A stretch of DNA of 64,000 nucleotides, taken from positions 32,001-96,000 of the forward strand of contig CAWBNQ010000006.1 of the NCBI GenBank assembly GCA_963790205.1. Reading direction: 5' to 3'. Shown here piece by piece: positions 14,359 to 27,640 of this stretch. Below the pieces are notes generated by a model that was given only the letters and a program-made list of their open reading frames with translations, had not been told where the DNA came from and did no database searches. Every line of letters starts with the position of its first letter. Positions within the stretch are counted from its first letter, which is position 1. The position numbers and the translations under genes were made by a program. Source of the DNA: Nitrospirota bacterium. Lineage in GTDB: Bacteria; Nitrospirota; UBA9217.

Positions 14359-14385
14359 AACGTTATATATGGATAGAGCATGAGG
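14359..14385 (+). mobile_element. Isolated copy of the IS110 left end
   Basis: cgttatatatggatagagcatgagg (14361-14385) matches the reverse complement of 22100-22124 at 24/25. Confidence 0.7.
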
Positions 14386-14553
14386 ATCCGAATCATGGGG
14401 TGTCATTGACTAGGGTCAGAATGTCTCTCAGAGTACACGGCGGCGTTCTTCTTCCTGACGGGGTATCTGCTGAAGAAGAAGTATGTGTGGAAATAGTGAA
14501 ATATCAAAATACAAGACGTGACCCTATGGAGTCCCAGCGGAGGTACGATCAGG

Positions 14554-15849: not shown

Positions 15850-18800
15850 GATAGCCTGAACAACACGATTAATTATACCTATGACTCCGAAGGCAACAAA
15901 CTGACCGAGCAGATCAATGACAGCGCGAACAGTCTCCAGAAGACGCTCAGCTATCAGTACGATGCGCTTGATCGGCTGGCGAAGATCGTGAACCCCGATA
16001 GTACGTTTACGCAGTATACCTATGACGGGACAACGGCCAAAGACCCGAATGGAAACGCGACTACCTACAACTATGATGCATTAAGCCGACTGGCTTCGGT
16101 CATCCAGCCCGGAACTGTTACGACAACTTATGGCTACAACACAAATAATAACCTGATTTCCGTGACGGATGCGAACAACAATACGACCTCGTACAAGTAC
16201 GACGACAAAGGTAGGGTCTATCAAGTCATCTCGCCGGACACAGGAACCACAACTTACCAGTATGATCCAGCTGGAAATCTCACGAGCAAGACGGACGCGA
16301 AGGGAATTACTGTTGCATATACGTATGACGCGGCAAATAGGCTAACGCGAATCCACTTCCCGTCTGATACCGACATTGTTTACGCTTATGATAGCTGCGT
16401 GAACGGCAAAGGCCGTCTTTGCAGCATGACCGACGCGAGCGGCACGACTGCTTACGAATACTCCGCGAAAGGTCAGATCAAAAAAGAAACGCGGGCCATC
16501 GATAGCATTCAATACGTCACCCAATACACCTACGATCAGAACGGCAACTTGAAGACGATAACGTATCCCAGCAGTCGCGTGATCACGTACACCGTGTCGA
16601 ACGATAAAGTGACCGCTGTTCTGAACAACGCCGCGAACCTTGCCACGAATATCAACTATAAACCTTTCGGCGGCGTTTCCTCGCTTACCTATGGCAACAG
16701 CATTGTCGGAACCATCGGCTACGATAACCAGTATCGCGTTACGAGCATCACAGCGGGAACCGTGATGAGTCTCGGCTATCCAACGTATGATGCGAACGGG
16801 AACATCATGGCCATCAACAACGCTCTCGATCCCACTAAGAACAAGTCATTTACTTACGATGCTCTTGATCGTCTCTCGACGGCAACGGCCACCGGCATAT
16901 GGGGCAGTCTCGCCTGGACCTATGACGGAGTTGGAAACAGACAGACGGAGAACGGAAACTCGTACACTTACGTTCCCAGCAGTAATAAGCTAAGCGGCGC
17001 CAATGGCCTGTCTTATGGATTTGATAACGACGGCAATACCACGATAGAAGGCGCACGTCAGTATATCTATAATCAGAACCAAAGATTGATCCAGGTAAAC
17101 AACGGTAGCACCATTGCGTACTACACCTACAATGGCAACGGCCAGCGAGTAAAGAAGAATGTTAATGGCGTAGTAACTATCTTCCATTACAGCCTGAATG
17201 GCCAGATCATTGCCGAATCAGATAGTGCTGGCACTATTACCGCGGAATACGTTTACCTCAATGCCCGTCCGCTCGTAAAGATCGAAGGGCCGAATAACTA
17301 TTATTACATCAATGATAGTCGTGAGCTACCCCCCTTTGTAGTGCCACTTGCAATTAGAGGTTTTGACCGATCTTTGACAATTCTTGCAGCTTGAATTCAG
17401 CAGGCGTCAGGTCGTTTAAAGAGCTGTGGAGACGAACCTGCATGTAATCGACCCGCCAATTCTCGATGATCTTTCGTGCATGATCCAAGCTCATGAACCA
17501 GTTTTCGTTCAGACATTCGTCGCGGAATCTGCCGTTAAAGCTCTCCATGTAGCAATTATCAACCGGCTTGCCCGGACGAATGAACTGTAGCTTGATCCCG
17601 CGCTCATATGCCCACGCATCCAGCGCGTTGCTGATGAACTCAGGGCCATTATCAACAACGATCTGCTCGGGAAGGCCGTGAATTGCCGATATCCGGGTCA
17701 GGACCTGTGCTACCCGCTTACCGCCGATCGATGTATCTACTTCAATCCAGAAACATTCTCTTGTAAACGTATCAATGATCGGAAGCGCCCGAAACCTTCG
17801 CCCGTTATGCAGCGCATCCTGAAGAAAGTCCATGGCCCAGAGTTGATTCGGCCGCTCTGCCTTGGGAAGTTCTATTCGAGCCTGAGCTGCCAGCTCCTTC
17901 ATCCTGGTACGAAGTGCTTCGTCCTTATCCGGTTTCCGTTTGTACCGCAGGGTGTTCCGGCTCAGGTCCACGAGGCGGCTGGCGCGGCGATCACTCAGCC
18001 CAAAGCAGTCTTTGATATAGGCTGCGGCATCCCGCCGTGCCTTGGGCGTTAGAAGTTTTTTGTTACTACCGCTTTCAGTGCCTGGTTATCAAGCGTCAGA
18101 TCGGCTACGATCTGCTTCAAACGTCGGTTCTCGTCCTCGAGCTGCTTGAGGCGCCTCACCTCGCTGACGCCCATGCCGCCGTATTTTGCTTTCCAGTTGT
18201 AATAGGTGGCGTCGCTGAATCCGTATTTGCGGCAGAGCTCGGGGATCTTTATCCCTGCATCTGCCTCTTTTAAAATTTTGACAATCTGCTCCTCCGAGTA
18301 CTTGCCTTGCTTCATCTGGTGCCTCCTTTTCGAGTGAGATATTATGTCACACTCTAATCGGAAATGGCACTATTTTCGGGGGGCAGGTCCGTCGCGCTAC
18401 TCCCCAGAAGATGGTGGACAGCACGGGCACAGTTGTATGGGCTGCTGATTACAAACCTTTCGGCGAAGCGACGATCACTGTGTCAACGATCACAAACAAC
18501 CTCAGATTCCCTGGGCAGTATTATGATGTGGAGACAGGATTGAATTATAATTACTATAGGGACTATAATCCGATGACTGGGCGGTATATAGAGGCGGATC
18601 CGATTGGACTGAAGGGCGGATTAAATCTTTTTGCTTATGCAAAAGGGTCACCGATTAAGTGGGTGGATCCTCGAGGACTTTTATGTGTTCGGATCTGGCG
18701 ATCAGTCACAGGATTTGAATACCACATTTGGGATACTAGGTGGAATAAGGAGGGAGAAACAGTAGTAGATCCGGATTTACATTATGGATATTGCCAATGG

Positions 18801-19010
18801 AGTAAAATCCAGGAAGGTTGGTTAAAAGAGTATGTAAAAACTACTTATCTCTGTTGTGAATGTTTTAAATGTCAAATAAAGACTGAAGAGACTATAGAAG
18901 AAGGGCGACATGATAAGGTGGTTGACACCAGGATTACATCTATGTCATTTTGGCCTGTGGGACCGTATCATACATATATACACCAGTGTCCAACTCCATC
19001 CGATATTTAA
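15850..19010 (+). pseudogene. 5'-truncated Rhs/YD-repeat protein with C-terminal toxin domain, interrupted by IS3
   Basis: YD repeats; removing the IS and one GTCG restores YYYINDSRATPQKM in frame; core end RFPGQYYD..DPIGLKGG..DPRGL, then a roughly 110-aa variable tail. Confidence 0.85.
17322..18390 (-). mobile_element. IS3-family element (orfA 18049-18315, internally deleted orfB)
   Basis: TIRs TGAGCTACCCCCC..TAGTGCCA / TGGCACTA..GGGGGGCAGGTCC; GTCG target duplication; AAAAAAC slippery site; rve WAMDF..DNGPEF..ESFNG; HTH part of orfB appears missing. Confidence 0.9.
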
Positions 19011-19030
19011 AGGAGCTGAAAGGAGCTGAG

Positions 19031-19513
19031 ATGATCAATCTATTTGGCTTTCTGTTAATTATCGCAGGATTTATTATACCTTTCCTAACTGATGGGCAGA
19101 TACGATCAACATTCTTTTTTTTGGTCGGATTCCTACTGCTTCTTTGGCCGAACAAGTATTTCCCGAAGATGTCCTTTTGGTTAAAATGGGGTCGAATTGG
19201 CGTGATACTAAAAATATTCGGGACATTATTTTTGATTCTTTTCTTTAAGCTTATAACACAAACATCGTTTTCTTCAAGTTATTTTGCTCTGTTAATGTTA
19301 CAGATAACCAGTTATATCTTCAGTCCTTTTGCTAGAATATTTGATATCATATTGCCAAAGGGCCAGATAACAATGCCCGATGGAAGTGCTCAATACACTA
19401 TTAGTTTTATAAGAGCTTCGGTTACTAGTTTCTGCGATATCTTGGCATATATCTTAATTGGCATCGCAATCGGTAAATTAATTGCGATGAAACAGAGTAA
19501 AAAAACAACATGA
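19031..19513 (+). CDS. Putative immunity membrane protein for the Rhs toxin
   Basis: Low GC, multi-TM; starts 20 bp after the toxin stop with an AGGAG RBS. Confidence 0.6.
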   Translation: MINLFGFLLIIAGFIIPFLTDGQIRSTFFFLVGFLLLLWPNKYFPKMSFWLKWGRIGVILKIFGTLFLILFFKLITQTSFSSSYFALLMLQITSYIFSPFARIFDIILPKGQITMPDGSAQYTISFIRASVTSFCDILAYILIGIAIGKLIAMKQSKKTT

Positions 19514-19820
19514 CACTGTGGGGAGGTTGTTTTTATGCTTGCTTTTCCGTATGGTCAAAATATTCAAACGCACTGTTTTGTATGATTTTTACAGCCTCGT
19601 GCCAGCCCTGATATCATTCGCCAATTGCGGCAGCGGATGAGTCGGCGGGTGCTCCGTCTCTCCCTGTTATGCGATCAATGATGAAATAGCATGCCCTCTA
19701 CAAGTACGATTCTTCAAAAAAGGGCCTTAAAACGCGAGGTGTCGTATCTATACTTCGATCAACAAAACCCGCATGACTACAGGGCTTTTTCTCTATGGGC
19801 CGGGAACGCTAGACCGCACC

Positions 19821-20338
19821 TTTGACGACAAAGGTCGGGTCTATCAGGTCATATCTCCGGACACCGGGACCACTACTTACCAATATGATCCTGCCGGAAA
19901 CATGATCAGTAAAGCGGATGCGAAGGGAATAACCATCTCGTACGCGTATGATGCGCTGAACCGGCTCACTAAGATCGACTTCCCCACAGACACGGACATC
20001 GTTTATGTTTATGACAACTGCCTGAACGGGAAAGGTCGCCTCTGCTCGATGACGGATGCGAGCGGGACAACTGCTTACGAATATTCGCCAAAGGGACAAG
20101 TAAAAAAGGAAACGAAGACCATCGACAGCATCCAGTACGTCACACAGTACTCCTACGATCAGAACGGAAACTTGAAGACAATGACCTACCCGAGCGGCCG
20201 CGTGATCACGTACACGCTCAGTAACGATAAAGTAACCGCTGTCTTGAACAACGCCGCAAATCTCGCAACGAATATCCAATATAAGCCGTTCGGCCCAATG
20301 TCGTCGCTCACCTATGGAAACGGTCTCGCGGGATCAAT
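19821..20338 (+). pseudogene. Second Rhs core fragment
   Basis: DDKGRVYQVISPDTG...LTYGN closely repeats about 16201-16710. Confidence 0.85.
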
Positions 20339-20399
20339 GATAAACATAGGGGACATACTATAACGCTCCCGTCAAGTGACAGTTTAGTTTTCATAATTT

Positions 20400-20660
20400 T
20401 CAATCAGATGGTTTTCTGCGTCGATTGAAGACGCAGCTTTCCTCCCGGCATTCCTGCCAGCATCGCTTTGATCGGCGAGTCTCTCGCATCCAGACGAACG
20501 ATAACTCTAATCGTTACAGCCTATTCGGCATGCCGCGCTTTCAGTTTGGCCGCCCAGAATACCTTATCCAGATTCTATCGTTCAAACGAGAGGTCCTGTA
20601 TTGTCCCCACCGAGGTCGTAGCCTCAACGTAGTGTCCCGGGCTCTCTCGCCGAAATTGGT
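20400..20660 (-). ncRNA. Candidate IS110 bridge/seek RNA in the 3' non-coding end
   Basis: Structured region with internal-loop segments matching both flanks of the insertion site. Confidence 0.65.
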
Positions 20661-20677
20661 TTTTTACGTTTCACGGA

Positions 20678-21985
20678 TCATGCCGCTTTTTTATTCGCGG
20701 CCTCATCCTCCTGTTTGAGATATTTCGGATCAAAGCATTCTTTTTTTTTCATCAGCGTCCAAGCGATAACCAGGAGCTTCGCGGCCAGCTTGACGCGCAT
20801 CTTTGTGACGATGCCTTTCTCCTTTGCCCGGCCCTTGAGCTTGTTCGTAAAGTAGGTGATAAAGTCCTTGTTCTTAAGCGAGGCGATAAATGCCGCCTGA
20901 TACAGTCCGTAGCGGAGATCGGCCTTGCCTTGCTTGGAGATGACCGGTATCGCGCTGGTGGACTTCTTGCCACTTCGATCCGCGCACAGGTCGAGGCCTG
21001 CCATTTTCAATACCTGCTTGGCGCTCGTAAAGCGGCGTGGATTTCCAATGGCCCCAAGCACCTTTGAGGAAACATCCGGTCCGAACCCCGGAATGCTCAG
21101 CAAGTAGGTGTACTCCGGAAATTCCATGCAGGCATCTTCGAGTTTTTCCTCCACCGACTTGATGGTTTGCCTGATCTGCTTCAGGCCGTCCACCATGACT
21201 TGAGCTTCGAAAGACGCCGCTTCTCCCATAGTGCAGCCGATGGAATCAACCGCGGCCCTCCAGATCATTCCCACCCTGCGGCCCTTCGCCAGCGTCATTT
21301 TGCCCGGCGCGACGGTGCGGCAGAAGGCATCGTATTCCATGCCGGCGATCTCCGAGGGGTCAAGACATTCCCTTACCACCGTCAGGGTTTCCGATGGGCC
21401 GTAGTGTTGGTCCAACTCGGGGAAATACTGCGCGATGAGGTGATTGCGAACACATACGCTCATGCCGTGTTCCCTTCTCTTTAAACGCCGTTTGAGTGCG
21501 ATCAGGACGCGCACGTTCCGCAGTGTCATCAGGGGGTATTCGTAAAACAGGCACTTCCCCTGGGCGATAAGATCTGCGACGTTTGCCGCGTCTTTGACGT
21601 CATGTTTGTCCCAGCGGCCGTCCAGAAGCTGCCGGTTGTTCTTGACCGCGACGCCTCCCACGAGAACGACCATGTGCCCGCACTTGATCAGATGCTCCGC
21701 CAGGGGCTTGTGATAGTTCGCCGTCGGCTCGATTCCGAAAACGACCGTGGTCAGGCTATATTGAACTTTGATTCGCTCGACATAGGCGAGCAGCTTTTGA
21801 AAGCCTTCAAGCGTGTTGTCAAAGACCAGATTCTTAACCAGCGTTTTTCCGCGTGCCGTACCGAAAAAAGCGTTGTGCTTCTCCTTGGCCGCGTCAATGC
21901 CGACGATCAAATGCTTTTCCGAACCGCGAATTTCTTTCTTCAGTTGAAGAAACTGCTCAAGTCTGATATCATCTACATAATTCAT
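20678..21985 (-). CDS. IS110-family DEDD recombinase
   Basis: GIDAAK, GIEPTA, KHDVKDA, SIPGFG and GL....RSG motifs. Confidence 0.92.
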   Translation of the reverse strand: MNYVDDIRLEQFLQLKKEIRGSEKHLIVGIDAAKEKHNAFFGTARGKTLVKNLVFDNTLEGFQKLLAYVERIKVQYSLTTVVFGIEPTANYHKPLAEHLIKCGHMVVLVGGVAVKNNRQLLDGRWDKHDVKDAANVADLIAQGKCLFYEYPLMTLRNVRVLIALKRRLKRREHGMSVCVRNHLIAQYFPELDQHYGPSETLTVVRECLDPSEIAGMEYDAFCRTVAPGKMTLAKGRRVGMIWRAAVDSIGCTMGEAASFEAQVMVDGLKQIRQTIKSVEEKLEDACMEFPEYTYLLSIPGFGPDVSSKVLGAIGNPRRFTSAKQVLKMAGLDLCADRSGKKSTSAIPVISKQGKADLRYGLYQAAFIASLKNKDFITYFTNKLKGRAKEKGIVTKMRVKLAAKLLVIAWTLMKKKECFDPKYLKQEDEAANKKAA

Positions 21986-22161
21986 AGGAACCTCCTGCCA
22001 CAAGAATTTAGTTTCGCTATAAACTTATTCTTAGCAGGAGGTTTCTATTTTGGGTAGTCTTGAAGATAATTTTCCCTATACTTTAATGGGAGAATCTAAC
22101 CTCATGCTCTACCCATATATAACGTAGTGTCCGAAGTGTACTTTCGGACGAAGTCTAACTA

Positions 22162-23262
22162 ATACAAACGCACTAAGTAATGTTACAAAGTCGCCTGACT
22201 TTGTGCTTTGACCACGAGTCAAGCGTCCTTTGGACCGTTGCCCAGATTGCGTCAAGGTTATCAAACCACCGGTTGGTAGTTGATTCATAGCGAATCTGGC
22301 GCCATATGCGTTCCTGCATATTCAAGGCAGGCTGATATGGTGGTAAGTACACAATCCGGAGTCGTTTATGCTTTCTGAGAAACTCCCGGATTGGGTCACC
22401 CCTATGCCAACGAGCTCGGTCAACATACAGCCAGATAGTGTAGCCACGAAGCTGGCTATAAAGGTGCCGCAGCACTTTGAGAAAACCTTCTCGGTTGCCA
22501 CGTTCCGTTTGGATGACGCCGGCACGAGCCAGAAGAGGAGCCACCCAGCCGGAAACATTCAAACGTTTCTGATGCTGGCTGGTTGTCGGCACTTTCAACC
22601 GTTTCCCGATGAGCGCCCAGCCGCGGCCAAGCCGAGGGTGCAGAGTAAAACCGCATTCGTCCTGAAAAACCACAGTTTCTTTAGGACCCAGCGTTTTGAG
22701 TTTTTTTTAGGCTCCTGGCAAACTTCTTCGCGTCTTCTGCCTTTGCCTGGAGATAAACGTGATTGGCTCGCTTTAACCGATACCCAAGTTGATGCATCCA
22801 GTATTGGGCCTGACGGACTTTCAGCTTTATCCCGAACTGGCGCTGTAAATGAGTTGCCAAAGTGGGGCCATCCCATCGAATACGATTTAAGCCGAACTTC
22901 TGGGGCGATTCCTCCAGTTGAAGCTCTAGCTGAGCTACGATCTTAGGAGTCATCCGAACTGGACGGCCTGACTGCTTTTTCGGGACAAGGGCTTCTACTC
23001 CGTCCTTGTTTACCGCCCGCGTCCAGCGGTTTACGTTCATCCGGGTCTGGCCTAGGACTTCTGAGATCCACCCCGGTCGTTGACCCTCCATTACCAAGAG
23101 GAGGGTAGCTATCTTTATGCCGATCCAAGCTCCTGGCACCTTCTCTGCGAGGGCCAGCAATTGCTCTTTGGACACCTTTATTGGGCTTGCAGGGGATGTT
23201 TTCATGCCCCCAGAATAACATAAAGTATGGTTAAAGTGTAACAATATTTACTGCGTTTGTAT
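22162..23262 (-). mobile_element. IS630-family element
   Basis: TIR ATACAAACGCA / TGCGTTTGTAT with flanking TA duplication. Confidence 0.88.
22173..23205 (-). CDS. IS630 transposase in two ORFs joined by a slippery A8C site near 22705
   Basis: orfA HTH (SGRP, W....L); orfB FQDECGF, VDRARWH and LPPYQPALNMQERIW motifs. Confidence 0.85.
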
Positions 23263-23279
23263 TAATTGGAGAATATCGC

Positions 23280-24830
23280 GTGCCTTATTGTCCAAATCCG
23301 GAGTGCCCGTTCAGAAAACGCTTCGGCGAATCCGCCGAGTACAACCAGGGCACGGCCACGTGTTCTGATTGCGGCACGGCGCTTGTAGCCGATGATCCGC
23401 TCGGGAGGACGGTCAAGCAGAAGAAGGAATTCAGGATGCGCGATGTCCATAAACGCCTCCTGTGGACGCTGGCTCTCCTGGGCTTCTGGACCATCGTGCG
23501 CCATTTTCCCCTGCCGGGCCTCGAGGGTGAAGGCCTGATGCGATGGGCGGCATTGGCGGGGAACCTGGGTCTTCGTGTTTCTCTATTCTCTTTAGGCCTC
23601 ATGCCATACATCACTGCCTGCGTTATCGTTGAGGTCGCCGCATTGCTCGTGCCCCCGTTCAAACAATGGCGTTCCAAGGGCGGGGCGCCTGGTAGAGCGC
23701 GGCTTACACGGGCCGCGATTTTTTTAACTGTTGTGATCGGGATCGTCCACGGCCGCGCTCTCGTTTGGCAATTAGGCAGTATGGCCGATGGTCACGTGCT
23801 TGTTGACAACGGGACGGCATTCAAGTCGCTCCTCGTCCTGACGCTCGTTGCCGCGATGTTTTTTATCATCTGGATAGCCGGTCAGATATCTACACGGGGG
23901 TGCGGTCACGGAATCAGCTTGATACTACTGTCCGGTATGGTGGGAGGGATCCCGCACGACTTCGTGAATGCCCTGCACCTCTACAAGAAAGCGCTTTCCT
24001 CCCCTCAATTTATCATGCCAATGGTGGCGCTTGCCGGCGCGATCATGCTGATAGTCTATATAGAGAGAAGCACCAGGCAAGTTCCGATACGGTATGCCGA
24101 CGGTACGGAGACAACGTTTCCCATTAAACTGACCACTGCCGGAACAACACCGGTTTCGTGGGCGTATTCACTTCTCGTGATCCCCATTTTATTCGTGCCT
24201 TTCAATGTAGCCATTAATGCGGCAACCCGTCCTGTTTCGGCCTGGATCACAGGACATCTCTATCAGGGCTCGCCTGTACACACCGCGGCGAGCGCCATCC
24301 TGATCTTTGTCCTTTACTTTGTTTTTTCGGCCCTGTTCCACAATCCGCGCGAGATGCTCGACTATCTCAGAGAAAGAAATGCATCCGTTCTTCCGGACGA
24401 GACAGAAGGAAAACGGGATATCTACCGGGGATTGGAAGGCATGGCATTTATCGGCAGCTTGTATCTGGTCCTCGTGTTTTTGTCGCTTCAGGTTATCTGG
24501 TGGCTGTTGCAGACGGAGGTCACCCCGGTCAACGGGGTCTCGTTGATCGTAGCAGTATGCATAGCGCTCGATCTGACCGGCGAACTGCTTTTCCGATGGC
24601 GCTCGGACAGCCTTGTACGCATTGCGGAATTCCACGAACCCTGGAAAGCCGGCCTGCTTCGCTCTCTTTTGGAAAAAGAAAAGGTACCCTGTATCGTACG
24701 GGGATATTATCACCGGTCCCTTCTGTATCTATTCGGCCCCTACATAGAGATGCCCGTTCTTGTCGCAGGAAGCAATGAAAACGCCGCGCGGGACGTAATG
24801 AGAAAATACATTGGATCATCTCCTTCTTGA
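23280..24830 (+). CDS. SecY-like paralogue with N-terminal Zn ribbon and C-terminal DUF2007-like domain
   Basis: SLFSLGLMPYITA, WIAGQISTRGCGHGISL and PIKLTTAG..P SecY-like motifs; CPNPEC..CSDC; AGLLRSLLEKEKVPC tail. Confidence 0.75.
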   Translation: MPYCPNPECPFRKRFGESAEYNQGTATCSDCGTALVADDPLGRTVKQKKEFRMRDVHKRLLWTLALLGFWTIVRHFPLPGLEGEGLMRWAALAGNLGLRVSLFSLGLMPYITACVIVEVAALLVPPFKQWRSKGGAPGRARLTRAAIFLTVVIGIVHGRALVWQLGSMADGHVLVDNGTAFKSLLVLTLVAAMFFIIWIAGQISTRGCGHGISLILLSGMVGGIPHDFVNALHLYKKALSSPQFIMPMVALAGAIMLIVYIERSTRQVPIRYADGTETTFPIKLTTAGTTPVSWAYSLLVIPILFVPFNVAINAATRPVSAWITGHLYQGSPVHTAASAILIFVLYFVFSALFHNPREMLDYLRERNASVLPDETEGKRDIYRGLEGMAFIGSLYLVLVFLSLQVIWWLLQTEVTPVNGVSLIVAVCIALDLTGELLFRWRSDSLVRIAEFHEPWKAGLLRSLLEKEKVPCIVRGYYHRSLLYLFGPYIEMPVLVAGSNENAARDVMRKYIGSSPS

Positions 24831-27545: not shown

Positions 27546-27569
27546 TTCGTGGAAGCATTCGAGGGACGT

Positions 27570-27640
27570 TGTGTCCGAAAGTGACTTTATTGTCCAAATC
27601 CGGAGTGCCCGTTCAGAAGACGCTTTGGCGAGTCCGCCGG
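27570..27640 (+). pseudogene. Decayed duplicate of the SecY-like gene start and its upstream DNA
   Basis: ttattgtccaaatccggagtgcccgttcagaa is identical to about 23286-23317; gtgtccgaa.gtg.acttt resembles 22127-22144. Confidence 0.7.

Follow-up and report, generated by a model that had tools for sequence, protein, structure and literature searches.

The window, a 64,000-nucleotide stretch of Nitrospirota DNA, carries an intact IS110 element of the bridge-recombinase type (Table 1). On sequence comparison, it is very probably a canonical two-loop bridge-RNA element with the RNA in its right end. The target loop would read 8 nt left of the crossover core on the bottom strand and 4–5 nt right of it on the top strand, the donor loop would read the element's own joined ends, and single handshake bases would pair across once the strands are exchanged.

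The remaining steps are modelled on IS621 and CazIS110 work. The ends would join at GT to form a circle and rebuild a sigma-70-type promoter, the recombinase and the RNA would be made from the circle-promoter transcript, and their complex would insert the circle at a 14–15-nt target. RNA expression, its binding to the enzyme and the circle formation are presumed by analogy.

Table 1. Features of the element in window coordinates
Feature	Position	Strand	Basis
IS110 element between GT cores	20355..22121	-	four genomic copies, homologue junctions
Left GT core	22122..22123	-	copies and homologue junctions
Right GT core	20353..20354	-	right junctions of homologues
Left target, 8 nt	22124..22131	-	covariation; 22132 also matches, position -9 without covariation
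Right target CCCC	20349..20352	-	covariation; fifth base weakly covarying
IS110 recombinase, 435 aa; D31, E86, D129, D132 and S338 align with IS621 catalytic residues	20678..21985	-	
Conserved 5′-leader hairpin	21989..22043	-	sequence and homologue leaders
Predicted bridge RNA, ~182 nt, two internal loops, covarying closing stems	20472..20653	-	homologue alignment
Left target guide, 8 nt and core	20627..20636	-	covariation
GAGG/CCUC hairpin capping the target-binding loop	20612..20625	-	100% paired; compensatory change in 2 pairs
Right target guide, 4 nt and core	20603..20608	-	covariation
Putative target-loop handshake A, opposite last T of right end	20602..20602	-	match 0.96, nearly invariant
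Left donor guide AUAAGGUAU, matching right end ATAGTAT with 2-nt bulge	20559..20567	-	T/G covariation
Right donor guide UGUAAC and donor-loop handshake G at 20512	20512..20518	-	handshake complementarity
-35 hexamer TTGACG of predicted circle-junction promoter	20370..20375	-	spacer 17 nt in 81/87 right ends
-10-like hexamer TATATA, first six bases of left end	22116..22121	-	40/41 distinct left ends; pattern required TATA
Second GT, 21 nt inside left end; joined to right target in seven remnants of related genomes	22099..22100	-	

The element, its recombinase and its ends

The element spans 1767 bp between its two GT cores, as delimited by four genomic copies and by homologue junctions. Besides three near-identical copies (the two others at 99.8–99.9%), this genome holds a copy at 90.6% and some short fragments. 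Flanks resembling GGACACT on the left and CCCC on the right vary between the near-identical copies, so these flank segments are the targets. An element end at about 20638, which would reduce the 12-nt match discussed below to a flanking duplication, is excluded, as the other copies run to 20355.

The noncoding ends measure 136 nt upstream of the gene and 323 nt downstream. Their terminal inverted repeat is TATA/TATA only, and exact inverted matches within the terminal 40 nt reach 5 nt at most, the longest being not terminal. The 11–13-bp sub-terminal inverted repeats (sTIRs) typical of IS1111, 7 and 3 bp from the ends, are absent from the terminal 40 nt checked. An earlier note on this DNA had likewise seen no sub-terminal repeats, and none of length exists.

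The 435-aa DEDD recombinase recognized in that note is intact and has an N-terminal DEDD RuvC-like domain (PF01548) and a C-terminal Tnp domain (PF02371), scoring 150.6 bits with NF033542 (NCBIfam IS110) at a cut-off of 140. Across 34 sequences, D31, E86, D129 and D132 are invariant and S338 is at least 90% conserved. By sequence, the solved relatives are IS621 and ISCro4 only, which are also the best fold matches (8WT6) of the AlphaFold model with a pLDDT of 79.

The best cultured-plasmid relatives of the recombinase are only ~30% identical, and 5336 of the 8000 proteins scored fall at E≤1e-20. The lineage enzymes of 425–435 aa come from Nitrospirota, deltaproteobacterial and other bins. Among the matches listed, the nearest named relatives are Nitrospirota bins, and the deltaproteobacterial and other bins are more distant.

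When the ends are joined at GT, a 17-nt spacer separates TTGACR from TATATA in 81 of the 87 distinct right ends and an 18-nt one in 6, with 14–18 nt allowed, and the spacing also holds for right ends with the last motif one base longer. The joined ends would rebuild a predicted sigma-70-type promoter on consensus spacing. A consensus promoter scan over the minus strand of the linear element finds nothing. Contigs of four DNA sequencing runs, which hold relatives of the element only, contain no end-to-end joint.

The conserved leader hairpin would cover the ribosome-binding site. At 22052–22115 of the window, GGGTAG lies close to the left end, and together with CTACCC, 55 nt on, it changes to GGATAG/CTATCC in relatives, pointing to a second conserved leader stem.

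An IS630-family element at 22158–23264 lies 25 bp from the left target and has eight further full-length matches and one split match in the genome. On the right side, an RHS/YD-repeat ORF cluster (15988–20363) is truncated at the flank of the IS110 element and, judged from ORF appearance, is broken near 17354–18315 by an IS3-like element.

Some insertions lie at AAC-GT-CCCC motifs beside RAYT-like transposase genes of the MPRQARL type (G000:C5:353203–354075; loci L030, L034, L049, L051, L058 and L063). A general link to RAYT/REP loci was rejected, since the motif occurs in 3 of the 51 left flanks and in 0 of the 84 right ones, with a background of 3 in 1000, so in a minority only. RAYT targeting by this lineage was not found in the literature searched, which was partial and without figures or supplements.

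The predicted bridge RNA and its target

In an alignment of 76 diverse sequences, the two-loop fold has 93.8% of its cells paired and 22 of its 38 pairs changed on both sides. It scores above all 500 of 500 shuffles, a test inflated by relatedness, and above every slid control. Folding of the single sequence is no better than that of shuffles (z -0.75 and -0.62). Rfam gives no match at E≤1 within 19800–23400.

The long-range stem proposed earlier (20472–20479/20646–20653) pairs and is kept in homologues, one pair having 33 compensatory changes. So are the GAGG/CCTC hairpin and the GAGAG/CTCTC stem of the same proposal, the latter helix being 97.7% paired in the 76 sequences. The pairing of CTCTC within the GAGAG/CTCTC stem and that with a downstream GAGAG fit about equally (95.3% vs 97.7% paired).

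The RNA is found in 149 of 214 loci, including the genome's own four copies, among the matches listed. It begins 170–290 nt past the stop codon in L055, L065, L058, L146, L147 and L149, and a degenerate additional target-loop copy stands upstream of the complete RNA in L055 and L065. Viral contigs give no match to the RNA pattern.

The earlier note overlooked the second loop, which appears to be the donor-binding loop matching the joined ends. Of 99 distinct elements, 97 have a T/G position in this loop that fits their right end, a covariation that largely parallels a single clade split and so counts few independent events. The left donor guide has no pairing with both core bases. In 102 of 105 distinct RNAs (C-G 90/90, A-U 8/8, T-A 4/5), the base that follows UAAC complements the final base of the left target guide, and the same donor-loop handshake is described for IS621 (PMC11208158).

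It is improbable that a short target-loop RNA (seekRNA) of ~70–80 nt is the working guide here, with the protein mainly reading the donor ends and the second loop being secondary. Such a division is suggested by the CazIS110-1 transcripts, 90% of which are target-loop-only (Sun 2025), and by the IS1111/ISEc21 seekRNAs of 70–100 nt (PMC11187229), and here the donor guides hardly vary and are imperfect. However, strongly covarying stems close the second loop, its handshake base tracks the target as counted above, and the full RNA is needed for full CazIS110-1 transposition (Sun 2025).

The two-loop reading was examined with homologous loci, 71 from GTDB genomes, 20 from relatives (two own duplicates dropped) and at least 121 from metagenomes, where the search pattern left both guides free. 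After duplicate removal, 59 left junctions with 34 guides and 105 right junctions with 29 guides were compared with 2000 shuffles per position. Among the right junctions, three RNAs had a 16-nt segment skipped and five right ends longer by one base were shifted by one.

From -8 to -1, the left guide matches its flank at 0.55, 0.60, 0.85, 0.57, 0.80, 0.73, 0.90 and 0.90, against 0.33–0.72 in shuffles. Positions -9 and -11 are at the null level and -10 is weak (7 long guides, 13/2000 shuffles). From +1 to +5, the right guide matches at 0.95, 0.95, 0.94, 0.61 and 0.39, against 0.47, 0.54, 0.54, 0.38 and 0.23, and +6 and +7 are at the null level.

Shuffles within clades used clusters set by the donor arm, entered by those with at least two guides. 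The left guide stays above them at 0.71 vs 0.53 and 0.73 vs 0.60 (0/2000 each), and the right guide at 0.85 vs 0.67 (0/2000), the latter being not significant with the tightest clustering (114/2000). In the 12 non-CCC classes of right guides, the flank matches R1–R3 in 9 and mismatches the own guide in 3. Several left guides match poorly, such as those of L027, L041 and L144.

The loop segments thus change with the flanks, also within clades, which argues that they are guides, one for the left and one for the right target. This tracking, seen in 149 loci among the matches listed, agrees with the earlier proposal of a 3′-located RNA with both guides and suggests that the lineage has been reprogrammed in nature many times. 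The guide order, a bottom-strand match and then a top-strand complement, is of the IS110 type as compared with PMC11187229.

All left ends begin with GT-TATAT and all right ends finish with TAG(T/G)AT-GT, irrespective of the target. GT occupies the right core positions in 0.99/1.00 of the 105 right junctions, found by a pattern without GT requirement. Together with the promoter spacing, the empty sites, the donor letters and the remnant joins described in this text, these junctions place the crossover core at a 2-nt GT. TATAACG is indeed common to both ends (20359–20365 and 22118–22124), but a 7-bp shared junction does not follow, as the 91% copy shares TATA only and the homologues fix the core at GT.

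In L052 (1060–1075), the left junction has GA and the right one GT, and both left-junction guides are altered to match. This hints that the core is perhaps resolved asymmetrically, and the exact cut position may differ from that of IS621.

The target would then be 8+2+4(-5) nt, i.e. 14–15 nt and IS621-like. The 14-nt donor also equals that of IS621 at 8 of 10 quoted positions, namely A1, A6, T7, T9, T10, T12, A13 and T14 (PMC11208158). The base adjoining the core fits the IS621 handshake guide, and by comparison with PMC11208158 the A at 20602 may have the handshake role; the three loop bases past it vary widely among homologues.

A shared junction of 4–7 bp with a ~25-bp target, read by a recombinase of higher specificity, as formerly proposed, is very unlikely. 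The matches behind it are real: 20626–20637 and 22121–22132 have the same reverse complement, and 20598–20608 is complementary to 20349–20358 with one bulge. All 25 letters can pair with the loop in this copy, the bases 3′ of the right guide sometimes follow the T/G change of the right end (AAUCC with GGAT), and a search of 201 genomes gave one 20-nt site (G479) that looks like such a target with two additional bases.

However, the 12-nt match comprises 9 nt of flank, 2 nt of core and, at its last position, the first base of the element itself, opposite which the loop has T, G or A in 86, 38 and 25 of 149 RNAs, among the matches listed. The 10-nt 'right target' likewise divides into 4 nt of flank, 2 nt of core and 4 nt of element. 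These last four, GTAT or GGAT, are constant over elements with unrelated targets and track the donor loop, and GTAT is missing from the remnants described below; as the remnants join straight to GT and the right target, TATAGTAT belongs to the element.

Moreover, the guide–flank covariation ends at L-8 and R4/R5, and the spacer of the circle promoter would be 7 nt under the longer junction. Empty sites of the 25-bp form with up to 2 mismatches number 0 in the whole genome, where the matches are three element right ends only, and none is among the 30 right-end loci read. The long footprint was thus claimed because the boundary was misplaced.

Least probable of all is that the loop matches are flanking-DNA copies or chance without a guiding role (an 11-mer match in the 323-nt 3′ noncoding end has a chance of ~8e-5), as they occupy set positions of a conserved fold, lie on opposite strands and, in dozens of elements, co-vary with the flanks.

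With the short bipartite target, occupancy in this genome appears accounted for by guide match alone. Within the 14-mer, one of the three near-identical copies matches fully and the other two have one mismatch each, and the genome's sites with up to one mismatch are 3 filled and 1 empty. The genome also has unoccupied sites built as left target-GT-CCCC, at C3:426821, a close sister of the filled site on C5, and at 27562–27576 of the window. The latter (plus-strand numbering, minus strand) has one mismatch to the guide of the 91% copy and adjoins a 53-bp duplicate of 23285–23337.

An ISPpu10-like stem-loop as an extra target determinant was rejected, as 47 rejoined sites fold like shuffles (median z ~-0.2). 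A multi-copy relative with ~20 copies tolerates several left-guide mismatches. From these mismatches and those of the copies here, the specificity is not unusually high, and the claim of a longer-target, higher-specificity tool fails.

In one genome (L006–L032), more than 20 copies form four sub-variants with differing left guides and a single right guide. Every insertion falls in a dispersed intergenic repeat whose inverted ends are loose (TTCAAC...GTTGAA), and one of them directly follows an attC-like sequence.

Left-end remnants joined to right targets

Left-end matches number 74 in 401 genomes, of which 52 were read. In six remnants, the element's initial 21 nt run into GT and then the right target that belongs to the class concerned, CCCC in genomes G000, G007 (twice) and G211 and AGGTG in G153 and G104. 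For G153 and G104, deletion through microhomology at AGGT would produce another join. The G211 remnant has ~130 bp of its left flank in common with two truncated elements whose right ends are missing.

A length-free pattern gives 7 matches in 64 family genomes against 1 in the control; four measure 21 nt, G023 being the new one, and the others 24, 33 and 35 nt. Those of 33 and 35 nt end at GT dinucleotides found in related left ends. The remnants total ten, from nine genomes, and seven of them are exactly 21 nt long. Outside the family, 5 genomes have none, and 201 genomes of another phylum give 4 matches against ~17 in the control, the chance level.

The remnants were probably made by the recombinase. 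After the internal GT stands TA(G/T)AT, as at the true right donor; the base ahead of this GT is G, which leaves the donor-loop handshake G unable to pair there. Native handshake pairing disfavours excision (Hiraizumi 2026, PMC13626964) and donor-arm recognition suffices (Xie 2026). More tentatively, the recombinase may excise at the internal GT without the handshake pair and rejoin the chromosome, leaving a 23-bp scar in the order left target-GT-21 nt-GT-right target.

Against the excision, other left ends break off elsewhere, and about half of the 30 right-end loci read are remnants or chance matches with varied debris. The same join would arise if direct transfer to a new target were aborted (Sun 2025). 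Intact elements starting at the internal GT are absent among 4 matches in the 64 genomes.

At 14362–14386 (plus strand) of the window, a related IS110 left-end remnant has a target-like AAACAAC, GT and the same 21 nt, then GA and not GT-CCCC, and appears to be an imperfect member of this class. L232 (G178:C135) is a mini-element of a ~70-nt left end and a ~25-nt right end with correct GT cores and target.

In L292 and L293 (G022:C15 and G240:C1), beyond an intact empty target come, within 40–50 nt, a short piece of right end, GT and a further right target; these are possible one-sided (half-match) products. At G000:C3:438253–438308, a lone 56-bp copy of the leader hairpin is bounded on both strands by CAGGAG-GT-CC, one side continuing into the usual right-target context, and is possibly another internal-GT product.

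Cut-out with rejoining by IS110 elements is disputed, copy-out models competing with it. Precise excision leaves nothing visible, unlike these scars, which, if made by the recombinase, bear on the open question whether the vacated site is rejoined. If the excision is true, they would be a natural genomic record of in vivo cut-out with rejoining by IS110 bridge recombinases, and donor-like GT sites in cargo ends would lead to imprecise excision.

IS110 partial circles reuse internal endpoints (Hu 2026). The partial-circle and half-match reports (bioRxiv 2026.08.14.744561 and 2026.08.31.748434; ISPpu9, PMC12288879) share with the remnants the recurrent internal sites and the single donor match. 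Theirs are circles and inserted fragments, whereas what is seen here, scars of the left end in the chromosome that run into the right target, is the proposed reciprocal product. A published account of such scars was not found in the literature searched, partial and without figures or supplements.

Relation to known IS110 systems

The earlier note called the element an unusual variant for its 3′ RNA and long enzyme. Both features stand, but the wording is overstated, as both have been reported already: some IS110-group members have a downstream noncoding region (NCR), and IS110 subgroup enzymes have 395–455 aa (Siddiquee 2024, PMC11187229). The element resembles these members in its 3′ noncoding region, lack of a long sTIR, enzyme length and IS110-type guide order.

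The IS110 group sensu stricto has no sub-terminal repeat or one of 2–4 bp, and TATA/TATA agrees with this. Its norm of a long upstream NCR is reversed here, where the longer noncoding end is the downstream one, and PMC11187229 lists exceptions to that rule. IS110-group RNAs are mostly on the left and IS1111 ones on the right (Durrant 2024, PMC11208160). The same paper gives guides of 8–14 nt, with longer right guides in some orthologues.

IS1111 elements (ISEc11, ISKpn4, ISPa11) also have the guide RNA downstream of the recombinase gene. They differ in their 11–13-bp sTIR, absent here, in the opposite guide order and in enzymes of 330–350 aa, beyond which the one here extends by ~90 aa. GT-core systems of this lineage were not found in print in the literature searched, again partial and without figures or supplements.

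The likeness to IS621 and ISCro4 (IS622) is broader (PMC11208160, PMC11208158, PMC13626964). It comprises a DEDD and Tnp-serine enzyme, a target loop followed by a donor loop, a bottom-strand guide ahead of a top-strand guide, a 2-nt core ending in T, a ~14-nt footprint, handshake bases, a junction promoter and short AT-rich inverted ends.

In contrast to these two, the RNA here lies in the right end, not in the left, the core is GT and not CT, and the enzyme has 435 aa against ~326–328 aa, with ~21% identity in structural alignment. The left target has 8 bases here and 7 there, and the bulge here is apparently in the left donor guide. The element thus adds a large, naturally reprogrammed lineage (149 loci among the matches listed), whose natural guide/target pairs are ready for ortholog screens and in which the IS621 two-loop and handshake logic would be kept at ~21% identity of the protein, with GT as the core and the RNA in the right end.
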